This document shows, in pieces, positions 15,830-60,420 of a stretch of 64,000 nt of DNA (positions are counted from its first letter, which is position 1; every line of letters begins with the position of its first letter). The translations under genes and the position numbers were made by a program. The notes under the pieces are model-generated. The model saw nothing but the letters and a program-made list of their open reading frames with translations, was not told where the DNA came from and ran no database searches. Source of the DNA: Octopus vulgaris (Eukaryota); NCBI GenBank assembly GCA_951406725.2, contig OX597826.1, positions 15,934,001 through 15,998,000 of the forward strand, read 5' to 3'.

Positions 15830-17552
15830 CCATTCTATTCCCATTACTCTTTTGCATGGCACTGATCCCACTCTCAAACGAACTACATAACACCAGATAT
15901 GGGTTCAAAGTTCATAATACGACAATAAGCCATCTGTTTTTTATGGACGATCTGAGGCAGTTTGCTAGAAATGAGAAAGAGCTAGCAGAGCTGCTAAAAA
16001 GAGTTCAGCAATACCATTGGGATGGATTTGGGCCATAAATGTGCGAAAGCAATTTTTGTAAGAGGCAAGCTTCCATTAGATACCGACACTACAATCAAGA
16101 AGCTTGACTCAAAAGAACACTATATACACCTTGGGATAAACGGAGGAGATAGTATACAACATGCTACATATGAAGGAAAAAAATAAGGAGAAAAATGACT
16201 AAAACCTGAGCCCAACTCAAAACATCGCATCAAAATCATTCACACACTGATACTTTCAGTAGTCCTATATAGTTTTAACATCATTAACTGGAATCTTACA
16301 GAGAACTAATGACTGGACAGGTTGAGAAGAAAACTACTAACATCTATGAACATACATCACCCAAAAGCAAACATTGATCGTCTGTACGTACCTAGAAGTA
16401 ATGAGGGAATAGGAATATTGCAGGTAGAACTGTGCTATAAGACCTCCACAGTAGGAACGAACGAGTACTGTTCTTGTACAGATGGCTGGACGCTGCGATT
16501 TGTGTGCAAAGACGAAAGCAATACAAAATCACGATCGATTGTCAAAGAAGCTTGAAAATTCACATGAAAACTTAGCATAAACCCTGAAATAGATGAACAA
16601 CCTAAACCACTGGCACAAAACAAACAAAATGGATTAAGCAGACTGCAAAAAAGAACAGGTAGAAACGAAATGAGAAGCAGTGGAGCCAGAAGCCTCTCCA
16701 AGGACAATATATATTTTGAAGTCGAAATGCTGATGTACACCAAGCAACAACTCATCAATGACTGAGAAGTTCTGGACTGGAAGTAGAGACTGAAGGTTTT
16801 GTATTAGCAACAAAAGATCGATGCTTACTTACAAAACTGTACCAAGCTAACATTCTTCAAAACGGTTCTGCGACGCATTTGAGGAAACAACAGACTATCT
16901 CCCCTCGGGATGTTCTGTGCTGACACTAAAAGAATGCAAGAATCGTCATGATAGCGTAGGACAGTATTTACATTGGGAAATATGTGAACGCTATAAATTC
17001 AGCACTCCTGCTTACTAGTATCAACATCACACTGGGCCAGTGGTTGAAAGTAAAAATGTGATTATCCTCTGAGATTTTCCAGTCAACACTGACAGAACGA
17101 TCGAGGATAATCTACCAGAATAATTATTAAAGACAGGGATGAAAATACGGGTAGACTAAGTGTTGTAAGTGTTCCCACACATAAGAATATCTCTCTCAAG
17201 GAATTTGACAAATTAAGTAAATATAACAACCTGGAAATTGAAATGCATGTGGCATATTAAAACTACAACTATTTCTATTACTGTAGGTGCCCTAGGTATG
17301 GTAAAAAGGGATGTCAGAAGCATTTAGATAAAATCCCAGGAGAACTATGTTTCAGAGAAAGTACTGCCAGCATCCTTAGAAAAGCACTATTCATTTAAAT
17401 TACTGTGTTGTATTACTTGAGGATATTTCGCTACTGCCCTTGCCAGATCCCCTCCCCAAGCTTTCAGTCATACTGCAACATCTCTTGTCCCTATGACGCT
17501 GGGTGTGTCTCGGCAAGTGATTGTAACAAACATGCACAATTAGAAAAGAATA
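15830..17552 (+). mobile_element. 5'-truncated decayed R4/Dong-like non-LTR retrotransposon
   Basis: ISHLFFMDDL (RT), HHPKANIDRLYVPR, RHD and REL-endonuclease region; many stops and frameshifts; ends in (TAA)-like tail. Confidence 0.85.
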
Positions 17553-17589
17553 ATGATAGTAATAAAAAAATAATAATAGAAGCAAAACC

Positions 17590-18357
17590 GTAACTACGTC
17601 TGAGAAGCTCAGGATTAAAAGCAGAGACTTAATGATTTTTAACTGCAGCACAAGATCAAAGCCTTCCCACCACAGATCACCAAAAACACATAATGAAAAA
17701 ATATAACTAACCGCAGAACGTGGTGATGGACAAGAAACAGTAACTCATATATATTGTTTCTGGCTGCCCAGTTCTGCCTTAGAGGCAATATACTCAGAGA
17801 CACGACAGAGTTGGGATCTATATATGCTGGAAACTATTCCAACACTATGCAATGAGAACTGAAAAACGTTGGTATACGCACACCCCAGAGGCGATCACAG
17901 AAAGTGAGAAAGCAGCCATATTCTGGGACATGCCAATGCACACAGATACAGAAATTAAGAGCAACATAATGGATATTGTTGTCAGAGATCATTAAGAAAA
18001 AAAACATGCTTTCTAATCGTTGTATCAATAGTAATAGACGTCAAAGTTTCTCTAGGAGACACAAAGAGACTTTCAAAATACAAAGATCTGAAAATAGATG
18101 TAACTTGAATGTGGAGCCGAAAAACAGACAATTCCTATAATAGTAAGCGCATTAGGTATGATAAAATAACATTCAGACTAAATGCTCAACAACAACACTT
18201 GGACTTACAAGTATATATAATATACAGAAAATATCACTACTAGGCAGCGCACACATCCTATGTATAGTGAAAATAAGAGCACCACAAAACACAGAACATA
18301 CAAAAGGCATATAGCTGCGCTTAGTAGCGAAAGTACGTGATAAAATTAAGACTACTG
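17590..18357 (+). mobile_element. R4/Dong-like LINE 3' fragment
   Basis: AAQDQSLPT, SGCPVL, RHDRVG, ILWDMP, SKYKDL motifs; terminates in long (AAT)n. Confidence 0.85.
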
Positions 18358-36364: not shown

Positions 36365-37732
36365 AAGCTCCCGCAGCTCTGCGTGCCTTGGGTATCTGCT
36401 GTGGTTTGTTTTTGTGCTCTTATGGCTACTGCACTGAAAGTGTTTTACGTTGGATGTTTGCGGTGTCTATTAGTGCTATTTCCTGTGTGCTATATATACT
36501 TGTTAATCCTGGCGCTTTTGTTATATATTTATCTGAGTATTTTTTATCATACCTACTGCCCTTATTATGATAGGAATTGTTTCTGTTTTTAGACTCCGCA
36601 TTCGATTTACCTGTACTTCCAGATCTTTGTATTTTGATATTTTCTATATTCCCTTTAGAGAAACGGTGTTATCTGTTGGTATTGATACTTCGATTTGAAA
36701 GCATTTCTTTTTTCTTGATCTTCTCTGACAACTATATCCGGCCTATTGGCCTTAATTTCTCTATTTGTATGTATTGGCATATCTAACAGTATTGTTGCTT
36801 TCTCATTTCCTGTAACCTTTTCGGACGTGTGCCTATGTCATTACTTTTCTGTTGTTATTCCATAGTGTTGGCATAGCTTCCAGTATATATAGATCCTAAC
36901 TCTGTCGCGTCTGTGTATGTACTTCTTCTTAGCCAGGACTGGGCGGCCAGATACATATTCTGAAGTTACTTGTTATGTTTCATTTCATTATATGTTTTTG
37001 GCAATTTCTTATGGGGAGGCTTTGGTATTGTGCTGCAATTAAAAGTCCTTCAGTCTATGCTTTGAGTTCTGAGCTTCTTAAATATTGTTGGGATTTTGCT
37101 TAGTCTATTTCTTTTGCTTTTCGTTTAACCCAGCTTTCATGCTATCATTTTATCATGCTCCGCTGCCGTTTTAGTTTTAGTTTAGATTTCACGTGTTTTA
37201 CAGCTGTGTCTTCTTCTTCTTCATACTTTTTAGGTAGTATGACTTGCTTTTGTAGTCGTCAGCTTCCTTAAAGTGATTATTTCTATTAGTTTTCCTTGCT
37301 CCTGAAGTAGGCATTTTTGTCGTCCTATGATAGTTATTTTGTAATAGTTTTCTAGTTGTATAAGGCCTGCATCACTTTTCTATACGTCGCAAATATATAT
37401 ATAACCTTTCTATATTAGATTTTGGGTGGTCCATCCTAAATACTGTCACCATTTTGTTGTTTTCCGGTGTAATTTGAGTAGTTCATTTAGTCCAGTTAAG
37501 GATACCGTAGCTGTAACATATAACTAGGACACCTGAAATGTTGATACCTATTATCTTGTTTTTCGCATTGAGCTCTGTTTTCATTATTACTCTAACTCAT
37601 CTATAGTATTCCCTTTTTATTTTCTCTTTCATTTGTGTGTCGTATCGTACCTTCATTATTGATTCCTAAGTATTTGTATGTCTGGCTTTGATCCAATTCT
37701 CTTACTTCATTTGCTTTATCTAGCGTGATGTC
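36365..37732 (-). mobile_element. R4/Dong-like LINE 3' half, decayed
   Basis: TYKYLGI, MKTELNAKNKIIGIN, IEVSIPTD, SKYKDLEV; 3' UTR similar to 18270-18357. Confidence 0.85.
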
Positions 37733-52990: not shown

Positions 52991-53564
52991 TCAGTTTGTA
53001 CAGTTTTGCCTGTATTTATATTGTTGGTAAATGAAGTGGCGAGAGAGAGTGTACGTGTGTGTGTGTCTGTGTGTTTGTGTGTGTGTGTGTGTGTGTGTAA
53101 TTGGGAATAGAGGAAAGGAGAAGGTGAAAGAGAGAGAATATTATCTCTCTTTCACCATCTCCATCCCTCCTTCTCCCTATCATGCCCTCTCTCTCTATCT
53201 TTTACGCTCTCCCTCCCTCTATTTCCCGTTATACACACACACACACACACTCTCTCTCTCCCTACTTCATTTACCAATAAAATAAATACGGGCAAAACTC
53301 TACAAACTGACATGTATTAAATCTATACGTAAGCCCCAATACTTCTAACACACACACATATATATATACGTTTGGAAGGATGGCTTCCCTTTGCAAATAC
53401 TGATAGGGCACAGAAAGTGTGTCAATAGCCAACTGGAGAAGATGTCCTCCTGGGGCTACAAGCTACAGTAGCATCCACCCTTAGTAGTTATCCACATTTA
53501 AGTGGCAAATATACTTCACATTGTCGTACAGCTACAGTTTATACCTCGTTCAGAGATTTATTAT

Positions 53565-55799: not shown

Positions 55800-56188
55800 T
55801 GTTAACTGCAAGCGTAAACAGATTGTTTATAAATAGAAAGAATGGTGGCAGAGAACTAATTAGTATAGACCATTGTATAAGGAGTGAAAGGAGAATGCTT
55901 GCCGAGTATTTGATAAATAGCAACGAAGATCTGCTGCAATATACCGGGAACCATATTATTATTAGAAATATTGCATTTCTAAATTTCTCAGAGAGATTTA
56001 TGTAGTAGCAGCACGATAAAGTGATGGTGTGTTGCCAACTTAATGTGACAGTCCCAGGAAAGGGAAGAATGCCATTGCTATTACGCCCCAGGAAACACCA
56101 TTTCCAGTTGATTGTGTGACACAAGCGTTCCCTGTCCTTCAGTTTTCAAACAGGGGAGATAAACACCACCACTCAGCAAAGTCAGCAA

Positions 56189-56229
56189 CCAGAGACTAGT
56201 TTCAGAATCATTATTCTTCCTCAGCCTGG
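56189..56229 (-). ncRNA. Type I hammerhead ribozyme family F, canonical
   Basis: CCAGG-CTGAGGA-AGAAT-aatg-ATTCT-GAAA-CTAG-TC-TCTGG: GUC cleavage triplet, palindromic ACTAGT. Confidence 0.92.
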
Positions 56230-56466
56230 ATTACTTTGGGATGATAGCTGTCGATGCTTCTTCGCTTTTGAAAACTTATAGAATTTCAGGTGAAATAAAT
56301 TCATTTCGACAGTATGTTGGCAACAAACCATCACTTTATCGTGCTGCTACTGTATAAGTCTCTGTGAGAGATTTAGAAATTTTGTAGATCAGTTAATTTA
56401 TTTCATTCGAATTTCTATAAGTTTTCAAAGGAGAATAGGCATCGACAGCTAGCAAGCCATTCTACT

Positions 56467-56507
56467 CGAGACTGATGATGAGCAATGACTCTGAAACTAG
56501 TCTCTGG
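56467..56507 (+). ncRNA. Type I hammerhead ribozyme family F
   Basis: CGAGA-CTGATGA-TGAG-caatga-CTCT-GAAA-CTAG-TC-TCTGG; closing pair of stem II mismatched. Confidence 0.8.
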
Positions 56508-56699
56508 TTGCTGGCTTTGCTGGCTGGAGATGTTTGTCTCTCCTGTTTGAAAATTTAAGGACACAGAACGTTTGTGTCACATACCCAACTGAAAACGGTG
56601 TTTCCTGGGGCTAAATAGCAGTAGCATTCTTACTTTTATTGGGACTTCCACATTCAGCTGGCAGTAAGCCATCATCAATATCTATAATATTATTATAAT

Positions 56700-59600
56700 T
56701 TTAAATGCTATTGGTAGAAAGTTTGTGGTAATGATAATCACTGTGGTTATAGAATCGAGAATGGTTATAGAATCGAGAATGAAGCTATAGCCGATCATTG
56801 CGAAGGTTTCCCTCCCGGCAGGTCCGAAACAGCCAGCATCAGGAGCAGTGATCAGGCGTCGGACGGTCGTTATGTCGCAAAAGATCATATACACTGTTAG
56901 CGGAAACACAGACGTAAGTGCACGAAGGAAGTGTACGATACATCTATTGAATGGCATGAAAGAGCAAAGCTGAAAATAAGTCGTGGAGTTGGACGACGAA
57001 TCTTGAAACTTGGGATGGAAAAGGACACGTAGCCAATGTCAGAAAATAAACTATTGAACATAAGAGGGAGGATTACTTACTTGGAGTAGAAATATGTCGT
57101 ATTAATGAGTCTGAGATATCCTGCGGGTTGGTCGGGGTTGAAAACAGAGAGGTAGGAGTTAAACGCAGGGAGAAGAGTAGACAGGAGGAACAAGGGAATG
57201 GTGATGGAGCTGTTAAGAATGAGGAAAAGGAACGATATATACAATGAACACTGATAATGTGGTGGGTGGACATGCTGATTAAAATGAACCAACTAGACTT
57301 GATGAATGCTCTAGAAGCAAATATCCCCATGAATAAGAGAAGAGTAGATAGGAGAATGAAAAATAAAGTTACACAAATGGTAAATACTCTCATGCTGTAC
57401 ATCCAGACGGAGAACATAAAGCAAACAAGGAATCTTCTCCGAGCTATTGAGCTACTTGTTGAGGAGAAATTACAACTTGAAAGTGGAAGCCACGCATTGA
57501 AAAGGACATAATGCAGGCAAGGCAAGATCTATGAAAAACTGAACAATAGTTAAGAGGAAACTGGAAAAATGGGAAAATGTTTGACTGAGAAAAATAAGAC
57601 AAGAAATTCAAAATACGAAAGGGCGGGTTTGATGCAGTAATAGAGCAGTTAAAACAGAGGATCGTGGTAAAAAGCCAGGAGATCAGAAGATTTGTGAACA
57701 GAAAGAAGCAGTTCATGTAGAACATATTGTTCGAAAATAAGTCGAAGCAATTCTTCCGAACGTTAGAAGAAGACAATTGGGACAATGTTGCTCCTGATGC
57801 AAATCAAGCCAAGGAGTTCTGGAACGAAATATGGGGAAACAATGTGGTGCATAAAAGGGATGCAATATGGATAGGAATTATCAGGACATAATTATAAGGA
57901 GGAAAGAAACAAAGGAATATTGTCATAAGCACTGGTAATGTAAAAGGACAAGTGGGTAAAGTGCCTAACTGGAAAGCCCCCGGACCAGATGGGATTCATG
58001 GCTTCTGGATGAAGAGATGCCATGCAGTGCATGAAAGAATAGAAGGCTAATTAAATGAGTGTGTCCAGAAAGGTACACACCTCGCGTGGATGGTGACTGG
58101 GAGGACAACACTTCTAATGAAAGATAGAAGAAAGGGGAATATTGTGGGAAAGTACTGACTAAACTTAATCTGGAACATACTCACTGGAACAGGAAGAAAT
58201 ACTACGAAGGGAACAAAAAGGATGTAGGAAGATTACTCAGGGTACTAAGGGTCACCTGGAAATCGATAAAATAGTTCTGACGCATTGTAAAAAAACATCA
58301 TACAAACATGTTTATGAATTGTATTAACTTTAAGAAGACATATGATATGCCTCATTCTTGGATCGTTGATTGCCTGCAGATATTTAGTGTTGCTGACAAC
58401 ATCACAAATTTTCTGATGCATAGCATGGAAGAATGCAAAGCCAAATTGTACTCAAGTAACGTATTCCTTGGAGAAGTTAATATTAAAAGGGGTATCTTCT
58501 AAGGCGACATTTTTCTCCGTTACTTTTTGTAATTGCACTAATACCCATAACAATGGCACTTACACTTAGGAAGGTTAAGATGGGTTACCGATGAGGGAAT
58601 AAAGGCTCATCATTGAAACATCTGTTTATGGATGACCTGAAAATGTTTGGGAAATCTGAAAACCAGATAGGCTCCTTAACCAAAACAATCCAGAAGTGTG
58701 GTAGGGAGATCGGTATGGAATTTGGGATTACCGAATGCTCAGTACTTAATATGAAAAAGGAAGAAAGCATCCTGCAGATGATTACGGTTAACATCAGGAG
58801 AGACAATGGGTGAACCCGACGTTAGTGGGGAGATATATTTAGGGATTTTTGAGCTGGATAACATTCTACACAGAGAAATGAAAGCCAAGGTCAGCTAGGC
58901 GCATCAAAAAGTGTGAAGATGGTGTTGAATACCTAAAATTTGTTTACCGCAAGGAATATCTGGGCAATTGCAGGGGCCAGATATAGTGCGTCCATCCTCA
59001 AATAGACTAAGGAGGAAATATCAACACTGGGTAGCAGGACGAGAAATTGATGACGCTGCAAGGGGCGCTACACCCTAAAGCAAACGTAAACAGATTGTAT
59101 ATGAGAAGAAAGAAAGGTGGCAGGTGACTAATTAGTATAGACCATTGTATAAGGAGTGAAAGGAGACGGTTGCTGAGTATTTGGTAAATAGTGATGAAGA
59201 CCTGCTGTATTATGCTGTGCAAGATATGGGTGTAAATGTAGATTAAATGATGGCCAATGAGGAGTTTAACCAAAGTGTTGAGAAGAGAAAAGAAGACCTT
59301 CTTGAAATGAGAATGCATTTGAAAGGAATACACAAGACCTTAAGGATAATAGAGCATCGTGGGCATGGTGAGTTTGAGGTGATTTCAAGCGCATCACTGA
59401 AAGCCTGACCATTGCTGCACAAGACCAGGCTCTCGCTACCAATTCAGTGAAGTATAACATCTATAAAACTTCTGACATCCAGAAATGCAGACTCTTTGGA
59501 AATTGTGTAGAAAATGTGACTCACTTAATAAGTGCATGTGAGAGCCTTGCACAAAAAGAATACTAGGGTCGCCACGATTAATTCTGTGTTTTCATTGGCT

Positions 59601-60130
59601 CTTATGCTGTAAATACAAATATGAATTAACAGAAAACTGGTCTGAGCATGTACCAAGTGAAGTTATGCAGGAGGATGGAAAAGTAATGATACTCTGGGAC
59701 TATGATTTACAGAAGGATCGTGTGATCTAACATCGTCGGCCGGATATTGTGATATTGAATAAAAGAGGCAAATGCTGTCAGATTATTGATGTAGCCATAC
59801 CAAATGACATGAATGTCTGAGTTAAGCGATTGAAAAAAAATCACCAAGTACTCCGAATGAAAGTGGGAACGGCAGGACTCTATGGAATGCGAGAGTGTAA
59901 TGTAAATGTGATACCAGTGGTGAACTGAGCGTTGGGCTGAATCCCACTGAAACTTCAAAACTTCTTAAGGCAACTGGAAACCCCATGCCAGATTGTTGTC
60001 TTGCAAAAAACAGCCTTATTTGGCACAGCGTATATCTTAAGGAAAGTATTATCTGTCTTTGTTGTGACTTGACAGATGACTAAACACTCCGGTGCATTTT
60101 TACCTACATTGTTACGAAAGAATAATAATA
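56700..60130 (+). mobile_element. Near full-length decayed R4/Dong-like LINE (RT, CCHC, REL endonuclease)
   Basis: NWKAPGPDGIHGFW, EQKGCRK, RGIF*GD, HLFMDDLK, AAQDQALATN, CRL..VENVTHLISAC, RHD, RPDIV, IIDVAIP; tail GAAAG(AAT)n; multiple stops. Confidence 0.92.
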
Positions 60131-60149
60131 AAGAAAGTTCACATAGCCA

Positions 60150-60420
60150 ACCTAATTGAAATACTAGAGACTGATGTAAGAAGTGATACCAGTTGTGATC
60201 GGAGCATTAGGGTCAATCCTACTGAAATTACAAAAGTTCTTAAAGAGGCTGGAAAACGCTAGGAAGATTTATGTCATACACATTGAACATTGTTAGGTAC
60301 TGCGCACTTTTTAAGGAAAAGTAATGTGTCTGAGTTCCTTGCTGTGATTTTACAGATGCGTAAATACTCCGCGCCCTATTCCATCTTGACCCCATGAGAA
60401 AGAAGTAATAATTATTAAAA
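60150..60420 (+). mobile_element. Additional R4/Dong-like 3' fragment
   Basis: VIPVVIGALGSIP..LLGTAHFLRK. Confidence 0.75.

Follow-up and report, generated by a model that had tools for sequence, protein, structure and literature searches.

An Aged Head-to-Head Insertion of a Non-coding, Approximately 350-bp Hammerhead Repeat in Octopus vulgaris, Probably Written by a Penelope-like Element

Introduction

Non-LTR retrozymes were defined in metazoans, where circular RNAs have been shown in coral, mussel, and axolotl and Penelope-like elements (PLEs) were named as the likely helpers (PMC7229834). The mussel circles measure 350–390 nt, and the retrozymes themselves measure 350–390 bp in mussel and 330/350 bp in axolotl (PMC7229834). 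Furthermore, Li, Clavereau and Pollet (2026) presented retrozymes as non-autonomous PLEs (10.64898/2026.07.22.740005). Insertions of PLEs are described as partial tandems, truncated at the 5′ end, that lie next to an inverted copy and bear a tail of 30–40 bp at one end (10.1101/2021.04.23.441226), and the same layout was reported by Arkhipova et al. (2013; PMC3846280). Frangieh et al. (2024) worked with a purified PLE protein, which nicked both strands of AT-rich DNA and extended them; its reverse transcription started from two internal positions 3′ of the hammerhead, and these positions define the tail (PMC11167929). A circular template has already been proposed for PLE tandems, and paired hammerheads 100–700 bp apart on opposite strands were already noted (PMC4209133).

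The present analysis concerns a stretch of 64,000 nucleotides of the Octopus vulgaris genome (GCA_951406725.2, contig OX597826.1, positions 15,934,001–15,998,000), hereafter referred to as the window. A previous sequence-only reading of two inverted arms in this window, each with a hammerhead motif, had interpreted them as cDNA copies of a viroid-sized circular or tandem multimeric self-cleaving RNA, integrated back to back. Our analysis points to a single aged insertion of a non-coding hammerhead repeat of approximately 350 bp, written by the reverse transcriptase (RT) and endonuclease of a PLE, probably from a ligated circle; the probability of this reading as a whole is placed at roughly 0.55. 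Its broader part is much firmer, and the sequence evidence indicates that the repeat is very probably a non-autonomous hammerhead element mobilized by PLEs.

The repeat fits a new family of a known class, the animal non-LTR retrozymes already proposed as PLE parasites. Published work already covers the class, its proposed helper, the layout of the insertions, and the notion of a circular template, and the window locus is an ordinary aged copy of an abundant repeat. In the literature on octopus and cephalopod hammerheads or retrozymes, no paper on this family was found; supplements and repeat databases may hold it. The family adds a quantitative end map: starts are double and fixed, short and long ends pair strictly, and copies do not stop at the cut site. 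A retrozyme is thereby linked to PLE enzymology through its footprint and not through co-occurrence, and the question of how PLE tandems form is narrowed to two templates, a circle or an uncut tandem RNA.

Compared with metazoan non-LTR retrozymes as described in PMC7229834, the octopus family is alike in its unit size (tested range, 150–450 bp), its GC content of 38–42% (below 45%), its type I hammerhead with a short palindromic helix III, its strong self-pairing, the presence of dimers, and the occurrence of PLEs in the same genome. By contrast, the octopus copies are mostly dispersed, truncated or inverted arms of at most 2.6 units, whereas coral arrays reach 62-mers; expression, cleavage, and circles were shown for the described retrozymes, whereas for the octopus family cleavage is predicted and circles are proposed. 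The retrozymes of Li et al. (10.64898/2026.07.22.740005) belong to the same class with the same proposed helper, and their monomers are likewise dispersed and their multimers rare. The argument of that article is drawn from co-occurrence in vertebrates and pLTR homology, whereas the octopus family offers an insertion footprint, and no pLTR homology was found for it. With insertions of endonuclease-bearing PLEs (PMC8557442, PMC3846280, PMC11167929), the family shares 5′ truncation, partial tandems, an inverted head-to-head copy, a tail at one end, two internal RT starts 3′ of the hammerhead, and AT-rich targets; it differs in that the octopus element has no ORF, the whole element being one 350-bp unit, and in its tail of about 55–60 nt versus the 30–40 bp usual for PLEs. 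Plant LTR retrozymes are of type III, about 700 bp, and above 55% GC, whereas the octopus unit is of type I, 350 bp, and about 40% GC. Unlike viroid-like replicons, which have ribozymes of both polarities in each monomer, it carries one hammerhead, in one sense, per unit; the opposite-strand hammerhead in the window belongs to the inverted arm and not to the same monomer.

The Window Locus

The insertion comprises a left arm on the minus strand (55961–56303) and a right arm on the plus strand (56309–56674), both 5′-truncated and each matching a natural family unit at 83% (over 380 columns for the right arm). The arms meet head to head (5′-to-5′) at 56304–56308, where the BLAST matches end, a position good to a few bases. 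Positions 56022–56301 and 56395–56674 form an inverted repeat of 280 nt with 80% complementarity. The sequence-only reading had noted that the two arms share blocks and start at different points, and this circular permutation is real: the end of the left arm (55975–56046, in the minus sense) matches the start of the right arm (56309–56380) with 89% identity (E = 1e-21). The terminal redundancy claimed for the right arm was also recovered. Two 18-mers at 56316 and 56657, spaced by 341, are identical at 14 of 18 positions, and the second (56657–56674, plus strand), a second copy of 56316–56333, stops at the short 3′ site of the family. The right arm therewith spans one unit plus approximately 25 nt. 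The left arm, which had been taken for a full monomer, measures 343 bp, slightly less than one unit, and is not terminally redundant.

Nor did the proposed monomer length of 341 bp hold. A private 14-bp deletion lies at 56380/56381 (plus strand) in the internal copy of the tail hairpin, and contigs of other copies diverge from the window sequence at 56380; the window period of 341 is the product of this deletion, other copies having 350–356 bp. The left arm belongs to the long ("tail") 3′-end class, with a predicted hairpin at the long 3′ end of the unit (55962–55982, minus strand) that is conserved in other copies, and the right arm belongs to the short class. This combination of a long and a short arm follows the pairing rule described below, which points to one insertion event for the two arms. 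Private changes amount to 31 of 366 columns in one arm and 35 of 343 in the other, and this level of 8–10% per arm indicates that the window copy is old. A fossil of ADAR-type editing was considered and not seen, A>G accounting for only 4/31 and 3/35 of the private changes.

Contigs from two runs, which carry different organism codes, span the right junction of the insertion. The search for an unoccupied target revealed none, apart from a weak joint, one side of which has 26 letters, that was disregarded; the AT-rich flanks do not allow a target duplication to be called. The sole stop-to-stop frame of at least 80 aa that touches the arms extends out into a LINE fragment; no PLE protein match and no ORF with RT and GIY-YIG domains were found in the window. 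Each strand carries one hammerhead, with no two consecutive on the same strand, and the locus likewise lacks the two consecutive hammerhead-bearing units by which Li et al. recognize active elements (10.64898/2026.07.22.740005). Because its two ribozymes sit on opposite strands, the locus cannot yield a cut-to-cut monomer or a circle and is a dead-end product; the rare head-to-tail loci found elsewhere in the genome could.

Hammerhead Motifs and Folding

When both strands of the window were scanned with stem checking, type I hammerheads were identified at 56224 (minus) and 56472 (plus), both with GAAAC-UA-GUC^UCUGG, in agreement with the earlier claim of one hammerhead per arm with a GUC site and a palindromic stem III. 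The left motif (56189–56229, minus strand; core CUGAGGA/GAAA) has fully paired 5-bp stems I and II and a predicted cut between 56194 and 56193. The right motif (56467–56507, plus strand; core CUGAUGA/GAAA) has a predicted cut between 56502 and 56503, a private C-to-G change at 56468 that disrupts one pair of stem I, and a U-U in the basal position of stem II; both motifs and cuts were predicted by sequence scan and fold. In both, stem III is a single base pair capped by the palindrome, so that the left copy, which had been called canonical, deserves the term for its core and stems I and II and not for stem III. No match at the Rfam gathering score was obtained in the window. Hammerheads with a single-pair palindromic stem III are described as poor cutters alone that work as dimers (PMC4209133), and the axolotl hammerhead monomer gave 6% cleavage in one hour (PMC7229834). 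A further hammerhead-like motif of unrelated sequence was observed at 1195–1275 on the plus strand of the window, with CUGAUGA at 1206, a long stem II, and the palindrome ACCUAGGU.

In the right arm, stem I is extended into a long predicted hairpin with the hammerhead at its tip (56418–56557, plus strand; z = −8.2), with compensatory changes between subfamilies; in the family, this stem extends to approximately 35 pairs. A stem alignment that took in 36 of 50 extracted sequences had 92% of its cells paired over 40 pairs, versus 27–50% in slid controls, and four pairs were altered on both sides in 4–8 of the 36 sequences. The pairs with a change did not exceed those of shuffles (98 of 500), and the compensatory cells derive from a few subfamily-level changes. 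Folding of the circular monomer, a check put forward by the sequence-only reading, gave z values of −2.1 to −8.1 in all eight natural cut-to-cut monomers and −5.5 for the right arm (40 shuffles each); the long stem has been lost from the left arm (z = −0.1; as a circle, −0.8). The long stem of the right arm is unusually perfect for an old copy, and several private changes improve its pairing, which could reflect selection in the source lineage or DNA-level conversion within the hairpin.

Abundance and Arrays of the Repeat Family

The genome was searched as 2.8 Gb in 227 contigs. With the right arm as query, 2,534 first-look candidates were obtained, and the 40 that were scored are approximately 79–86% identical over their main matches. 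Two exact motifs gave 574 and at least 1,022 matches, with 0 for the reversed controls. The period is 350–356 bp between anchors in most loci and 346–361 bp between cut sites, in accordance with the retrozyme-sized hammerhead unit first proposed. The unit is non-coding, and GC is 0.38–0.42 in all eight natural monomers. None of the listed sequence sets containing the unit was recorded as RNA; contigs from runs presumed to be RNA cover it, but they carry no information on strand, ends, level, or circularity and were left out of the evidence. At least three subfamilies were distinguished, and one natural unit of each served as a mapping reference. An older fragment of the family, 68% identical, lies at 53381–53560 of the window; it ends close to the long site and is followed by an (AT)n run.

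Loci of 1.1–2.6 units are present. Six exact head-to-tail hammerhead pairs occur at five loci, one of which has three hammerheads, and two further loci span two cut sites. Among 17 anchor pairs, two consecutive periods were found at one locus only and no long master array was seen; the longest array found has 2.6 units, in a search in which exact patterns miss diverged arrays and the assembly may collapse long ones. This array (L126:3318–4234; G000:C13:10719817–10720733) carries three hammerheads, lies inside another abundant repeat, and is the best candidate source locus; many contigs show its empty site with about 7 shared AT letters. Its three units are a mosaic of shared differences and not clean copies of one molecule, which suggests that arrays are also shaped by local duplication or conversion; as a discriminator between circle and tandem templates, these units gave the mosaic pattern only. 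At another locus (L180; G000:C1:150061000–150064900), a head-to-head insertion has been amplified in a 0.9-kb tandem repeat of four to five copies. The longer-period repeats at L174, L128, and L180 were considered as longer versions of the element and rejected.

Ends and Pairing of the Copies

The end map comprises 141 distinct arms from 95 of the first 100 listed matches, among 1,022, to the motif downstream of the ribozyme; the other five matches fall within loci already included. Positions are counted from c1, the first base 3′ of the cut, and BLAST places the ends to within about 10 nt. The sequence-only reading had called for start points to be mapped on a circular consensus. On the map, the 5′ ends are indeed ragged and spread over the whole unit, and the 3′ ends are fixed: 64 lie at c158–182, 50 at c220–243, and 27 elsewhere, so that 114 of 141 arms end at two sites approximately 55–60 nt apart. 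Ribozyme-picked samples give the same two 3′ ends. The rate of 5′-end stops at the tail hairpin is mildly raised in a larger set (9/39 vs. about 10–20% elsewhere). A 5′-end pile-up at this hairpin was rejected as a feature of the family, being mostly due to the 14-bp deletion of the window copy and to selection for long matches.

Among 97 insertions, 58 are single arms and 38 are minus-then-plus (head-to-head) groups, with no tail-to-tail group. Both outer ends lie at a fixed site in 28 of the 38 groups, the 10 with an off-site end being set aside, and 27 of these 28 classifiable pairs combine a short and a long arm (binomial p = 1e-7); two of the 27 depend on arms below 30 bp, and the sole exception falls in a locally duplicated locus. 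Pairs mixing subfamily B with others number 0 of 38. In 47 of 48 comparisons, a sister arm was nearer than the median other locus; some of these comparisons share one locus. The targets are AT-rich or (TA)n, as judged by eye in the printed flanks without a counted control.

The permutation is not random: on a periodic template, it follows from two fixed starts combined with two stops at random points. Fixed 3′ ends and short/long pairs are the known footprint of PLEs, which can arise with no circle; the permutation loses its proposed value as a signature of a circle. The idea that two cDNAs were integrated independently also gives way to one insertion event per pair.

Template and Mechanism of Insertion

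Among the fixed-end arms, 56 reach the cut site; 51 pass it and 5 stop within 6 nt, which is the background rate. Fourteen of 114 fixed-end arms span at least one unit, and no hard 5′ wall was found in 182 fixed-end arms. A ribozyme-cut linear monomer is excluded as the template because copies do not stop at c1. Since copies run through the cut site, the template was continuous across it, namely a ligated circle or an uncut tandem RNA, between which DNA cannot discriminate; on this point, the original proposal of retrotransposition from a circular or tandem multimeric RNA stands. Given mobilization by PLEs, the evidence leans toward the circle. In its favor are the head-to-tail loci from which a monomer could be released, the absence of long arrays among the loci found, the extended stem I that would keep the cut ends close, and the good folding of cut-to-cut monomers as circles; the mosaic units of L126 weigh against it.

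In the preferred reading, a rare head-to-tail locus with at least two hammerheads would be transcribed, and the ribozymes would pair via the palindromic stem III and release a unit-length RNA. The long stem I would hold both RNA ends together, and a ligase would close the circle. The PLE protein would then nick both strands of an AT-rich target and prime two cDNAs, from internal sites that lie about 170 and 228 nt 3′ of the cut. Each cDNA would break off at random, in some cases having gone around more than once, and the two would be joined head to head. The specific version in which one ribozyme-made RNA circle is primed twice by the PLE protein, at two fixed internal sites and on opposite target strands, is put forward tentatively and falls short of even odds. 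If true, the double-primed circle would explain both the strict short-plus-long head-to-head pairs and the seamless copies longer than a unit; the circular intermediate proposed long ago would truly underlie the partial tandems of PLEs, and it could be proved in a minimal system consisting of a 350-nt circle and the young 717-aa PLE protein described below.

The strongest competitor retains the double priming by a PLE protein and replaces the circle by the uncut linear transcript of a partial-tandem locus; extra units would arise by re-initiation or template jumps, and the hammerhead would be kept for another step or as a hitch-hiker. We consider this possible, with a sizeable share of the probability that is smaller than that of the preferred reading. 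The protein-coding 717-aa PLE has the same ends and inversions, and loci of 1.1–2.6 units exist. In vitro, the lizard PLE used unprocessed RNA and hammerhead mutants were without effect on insertion (PMC11167929); on this evidence, the read-through is accounted for just as well by an uncut tandem transcript. Xenopus dimers failed to cleave in vitro in 8 of 9 cases (10.64898/2026.07.22.740005). Against an uncut transcript, fixed internal starts and 5′ truncation mean that a linear route can only shorten copies, so daughters would never be longer than their source, yet each of the three subfamilies has arms longer than a unit, and the search turned up no long array. Moreover, no 5′ wall marks a transcript start, the period and the junction are constant, and covariation is seen in the long stem proposed to bring the cut ends together.

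Penelope-like Elements and the Search for a Helper

Two PLE families of this genome were characterized. A 781-aa family has an RVT_1 match, just under the Pfam cut-off, and a GIY-YIG domain. Five of its loci (L122–L125 and L127) show a young RT plus GIY-YIG frame of 781 aa with a Zn-finger linker and an extra upstream frame of up to 479 aa, and motif scans found no hammerhead in them. A 717-aa family is very young and very abundant, with 22,789 candidates (e.g., L279:1–2830; G000:C5, about 4983700–4986500). Its ORF matched no Pfam family and has a weak match to the 781-aa RT (24%, E = 2e-6). It is short, has (TA)n targets and flanks, CxxC and CxH near the C-terminus, and a hammerhead-like motif in its pLTR with a CCGAAGA core that deviates at one core position. 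Its two ends lie about 65 nt apart, and all seven readable inverted pairs are short plus long. Judged by these traits and motifs rather than by a tree, the 717-aa family resembles the Hydra clade of PLEs (PMC8557442); with the 350-bp family it has in common the two-end rule and a similar tail length.

Neither the 781-aa nor the 717-aa family, as sampled, has DNA similarity to the 350-bp unit, and the 717-aa family is much younger. The helper search scored the best 150 of 6,136 and the best 150 of 22,789 candidates. Across 25 GIY-YIG loci, 8 extended PLE regions, and 30 loci of the 717-aa family, the search revealed no DNA in common with the unit, and no matching hammerhead was found in the Neptune-like RT plus GIY-YIG loci or in the 717-aa family. 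We thus infer a helper PLE from the insertion footprint. PLE fragments near L003, L004, L010, L085, and L181 were considered as the helper and rejected as independent neighbors, and a hammerhead beside a GIY-YIG fragment (L131) proved to belong to a second non-coding family. This second, unrelated hammerhead family (L220–L239; e.g., G000:C4:100756849–100757199), with 235 first-look candidates, has the palindrome ACUCGAGU in stem III, a unit of about 0.5 kb, partial tandems, inverted arms, and (TA)n flanks.

Remaining Alternatives

The unit might be merely the pLTR of a long autonomous Penelope, the window locus being two 5′-truncated stumps of it. The layout does match truncated PLE insertions, and hammerheads sit in pLTRs (PMC4209133). 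Upstream of the hammerhead, however, copies re-enter their own unit with the period of 346–361 bp and never an ORF, no long flank is shared among 30 loci, the PLE fragments beside five loci are mutually unrelated over a gap and not contiguous with the repeat, and the unit has no similarity to the PLE families sampled. The sequence-only reading had named fixed ends within a long Penelope pLTR as the pattern that would speak against its own proposal; the fixed ends are there, and copies within such a pLTR were not found in any copy examined. We regard the pLTR explanation as improbable.

An even smaller chance is left to two circles copied from random starts and integrated independently, back to back. 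That the arms differ in their starting points and share only 80% identity would agree with such an origin, but 8–10% private change per arm explains this identity, the 3′ ends are fixed in 114 of 141 arms, and pairs are short plus long in 27 of 28, always head to head, and never mixed between subfamilies. Least credible of all is a DNA-level element (a fold-back or MITE-like transposon, or a satellite) with a chance hammerhead motif, which would account for the long inverted repeat and the lack of visible coding capacity but not for the polarized truncation (3′ fixed, 5′ ragged), the unequal outer ends, the 58 single arms among 97 insertions, or the RNA-type compensatory changes.

Surroundings of the Insertion

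The insertion is flanked by a short fragment (55808–55956) and a long decayed copy (about 56780–60300) of a LINE-like element. At the insertion the left LINE-like fragment breaks off, suggestive of a deletion or rearrangement there. The same LINE-like element recurs in the window at 16687–18260 and 36542–37141.
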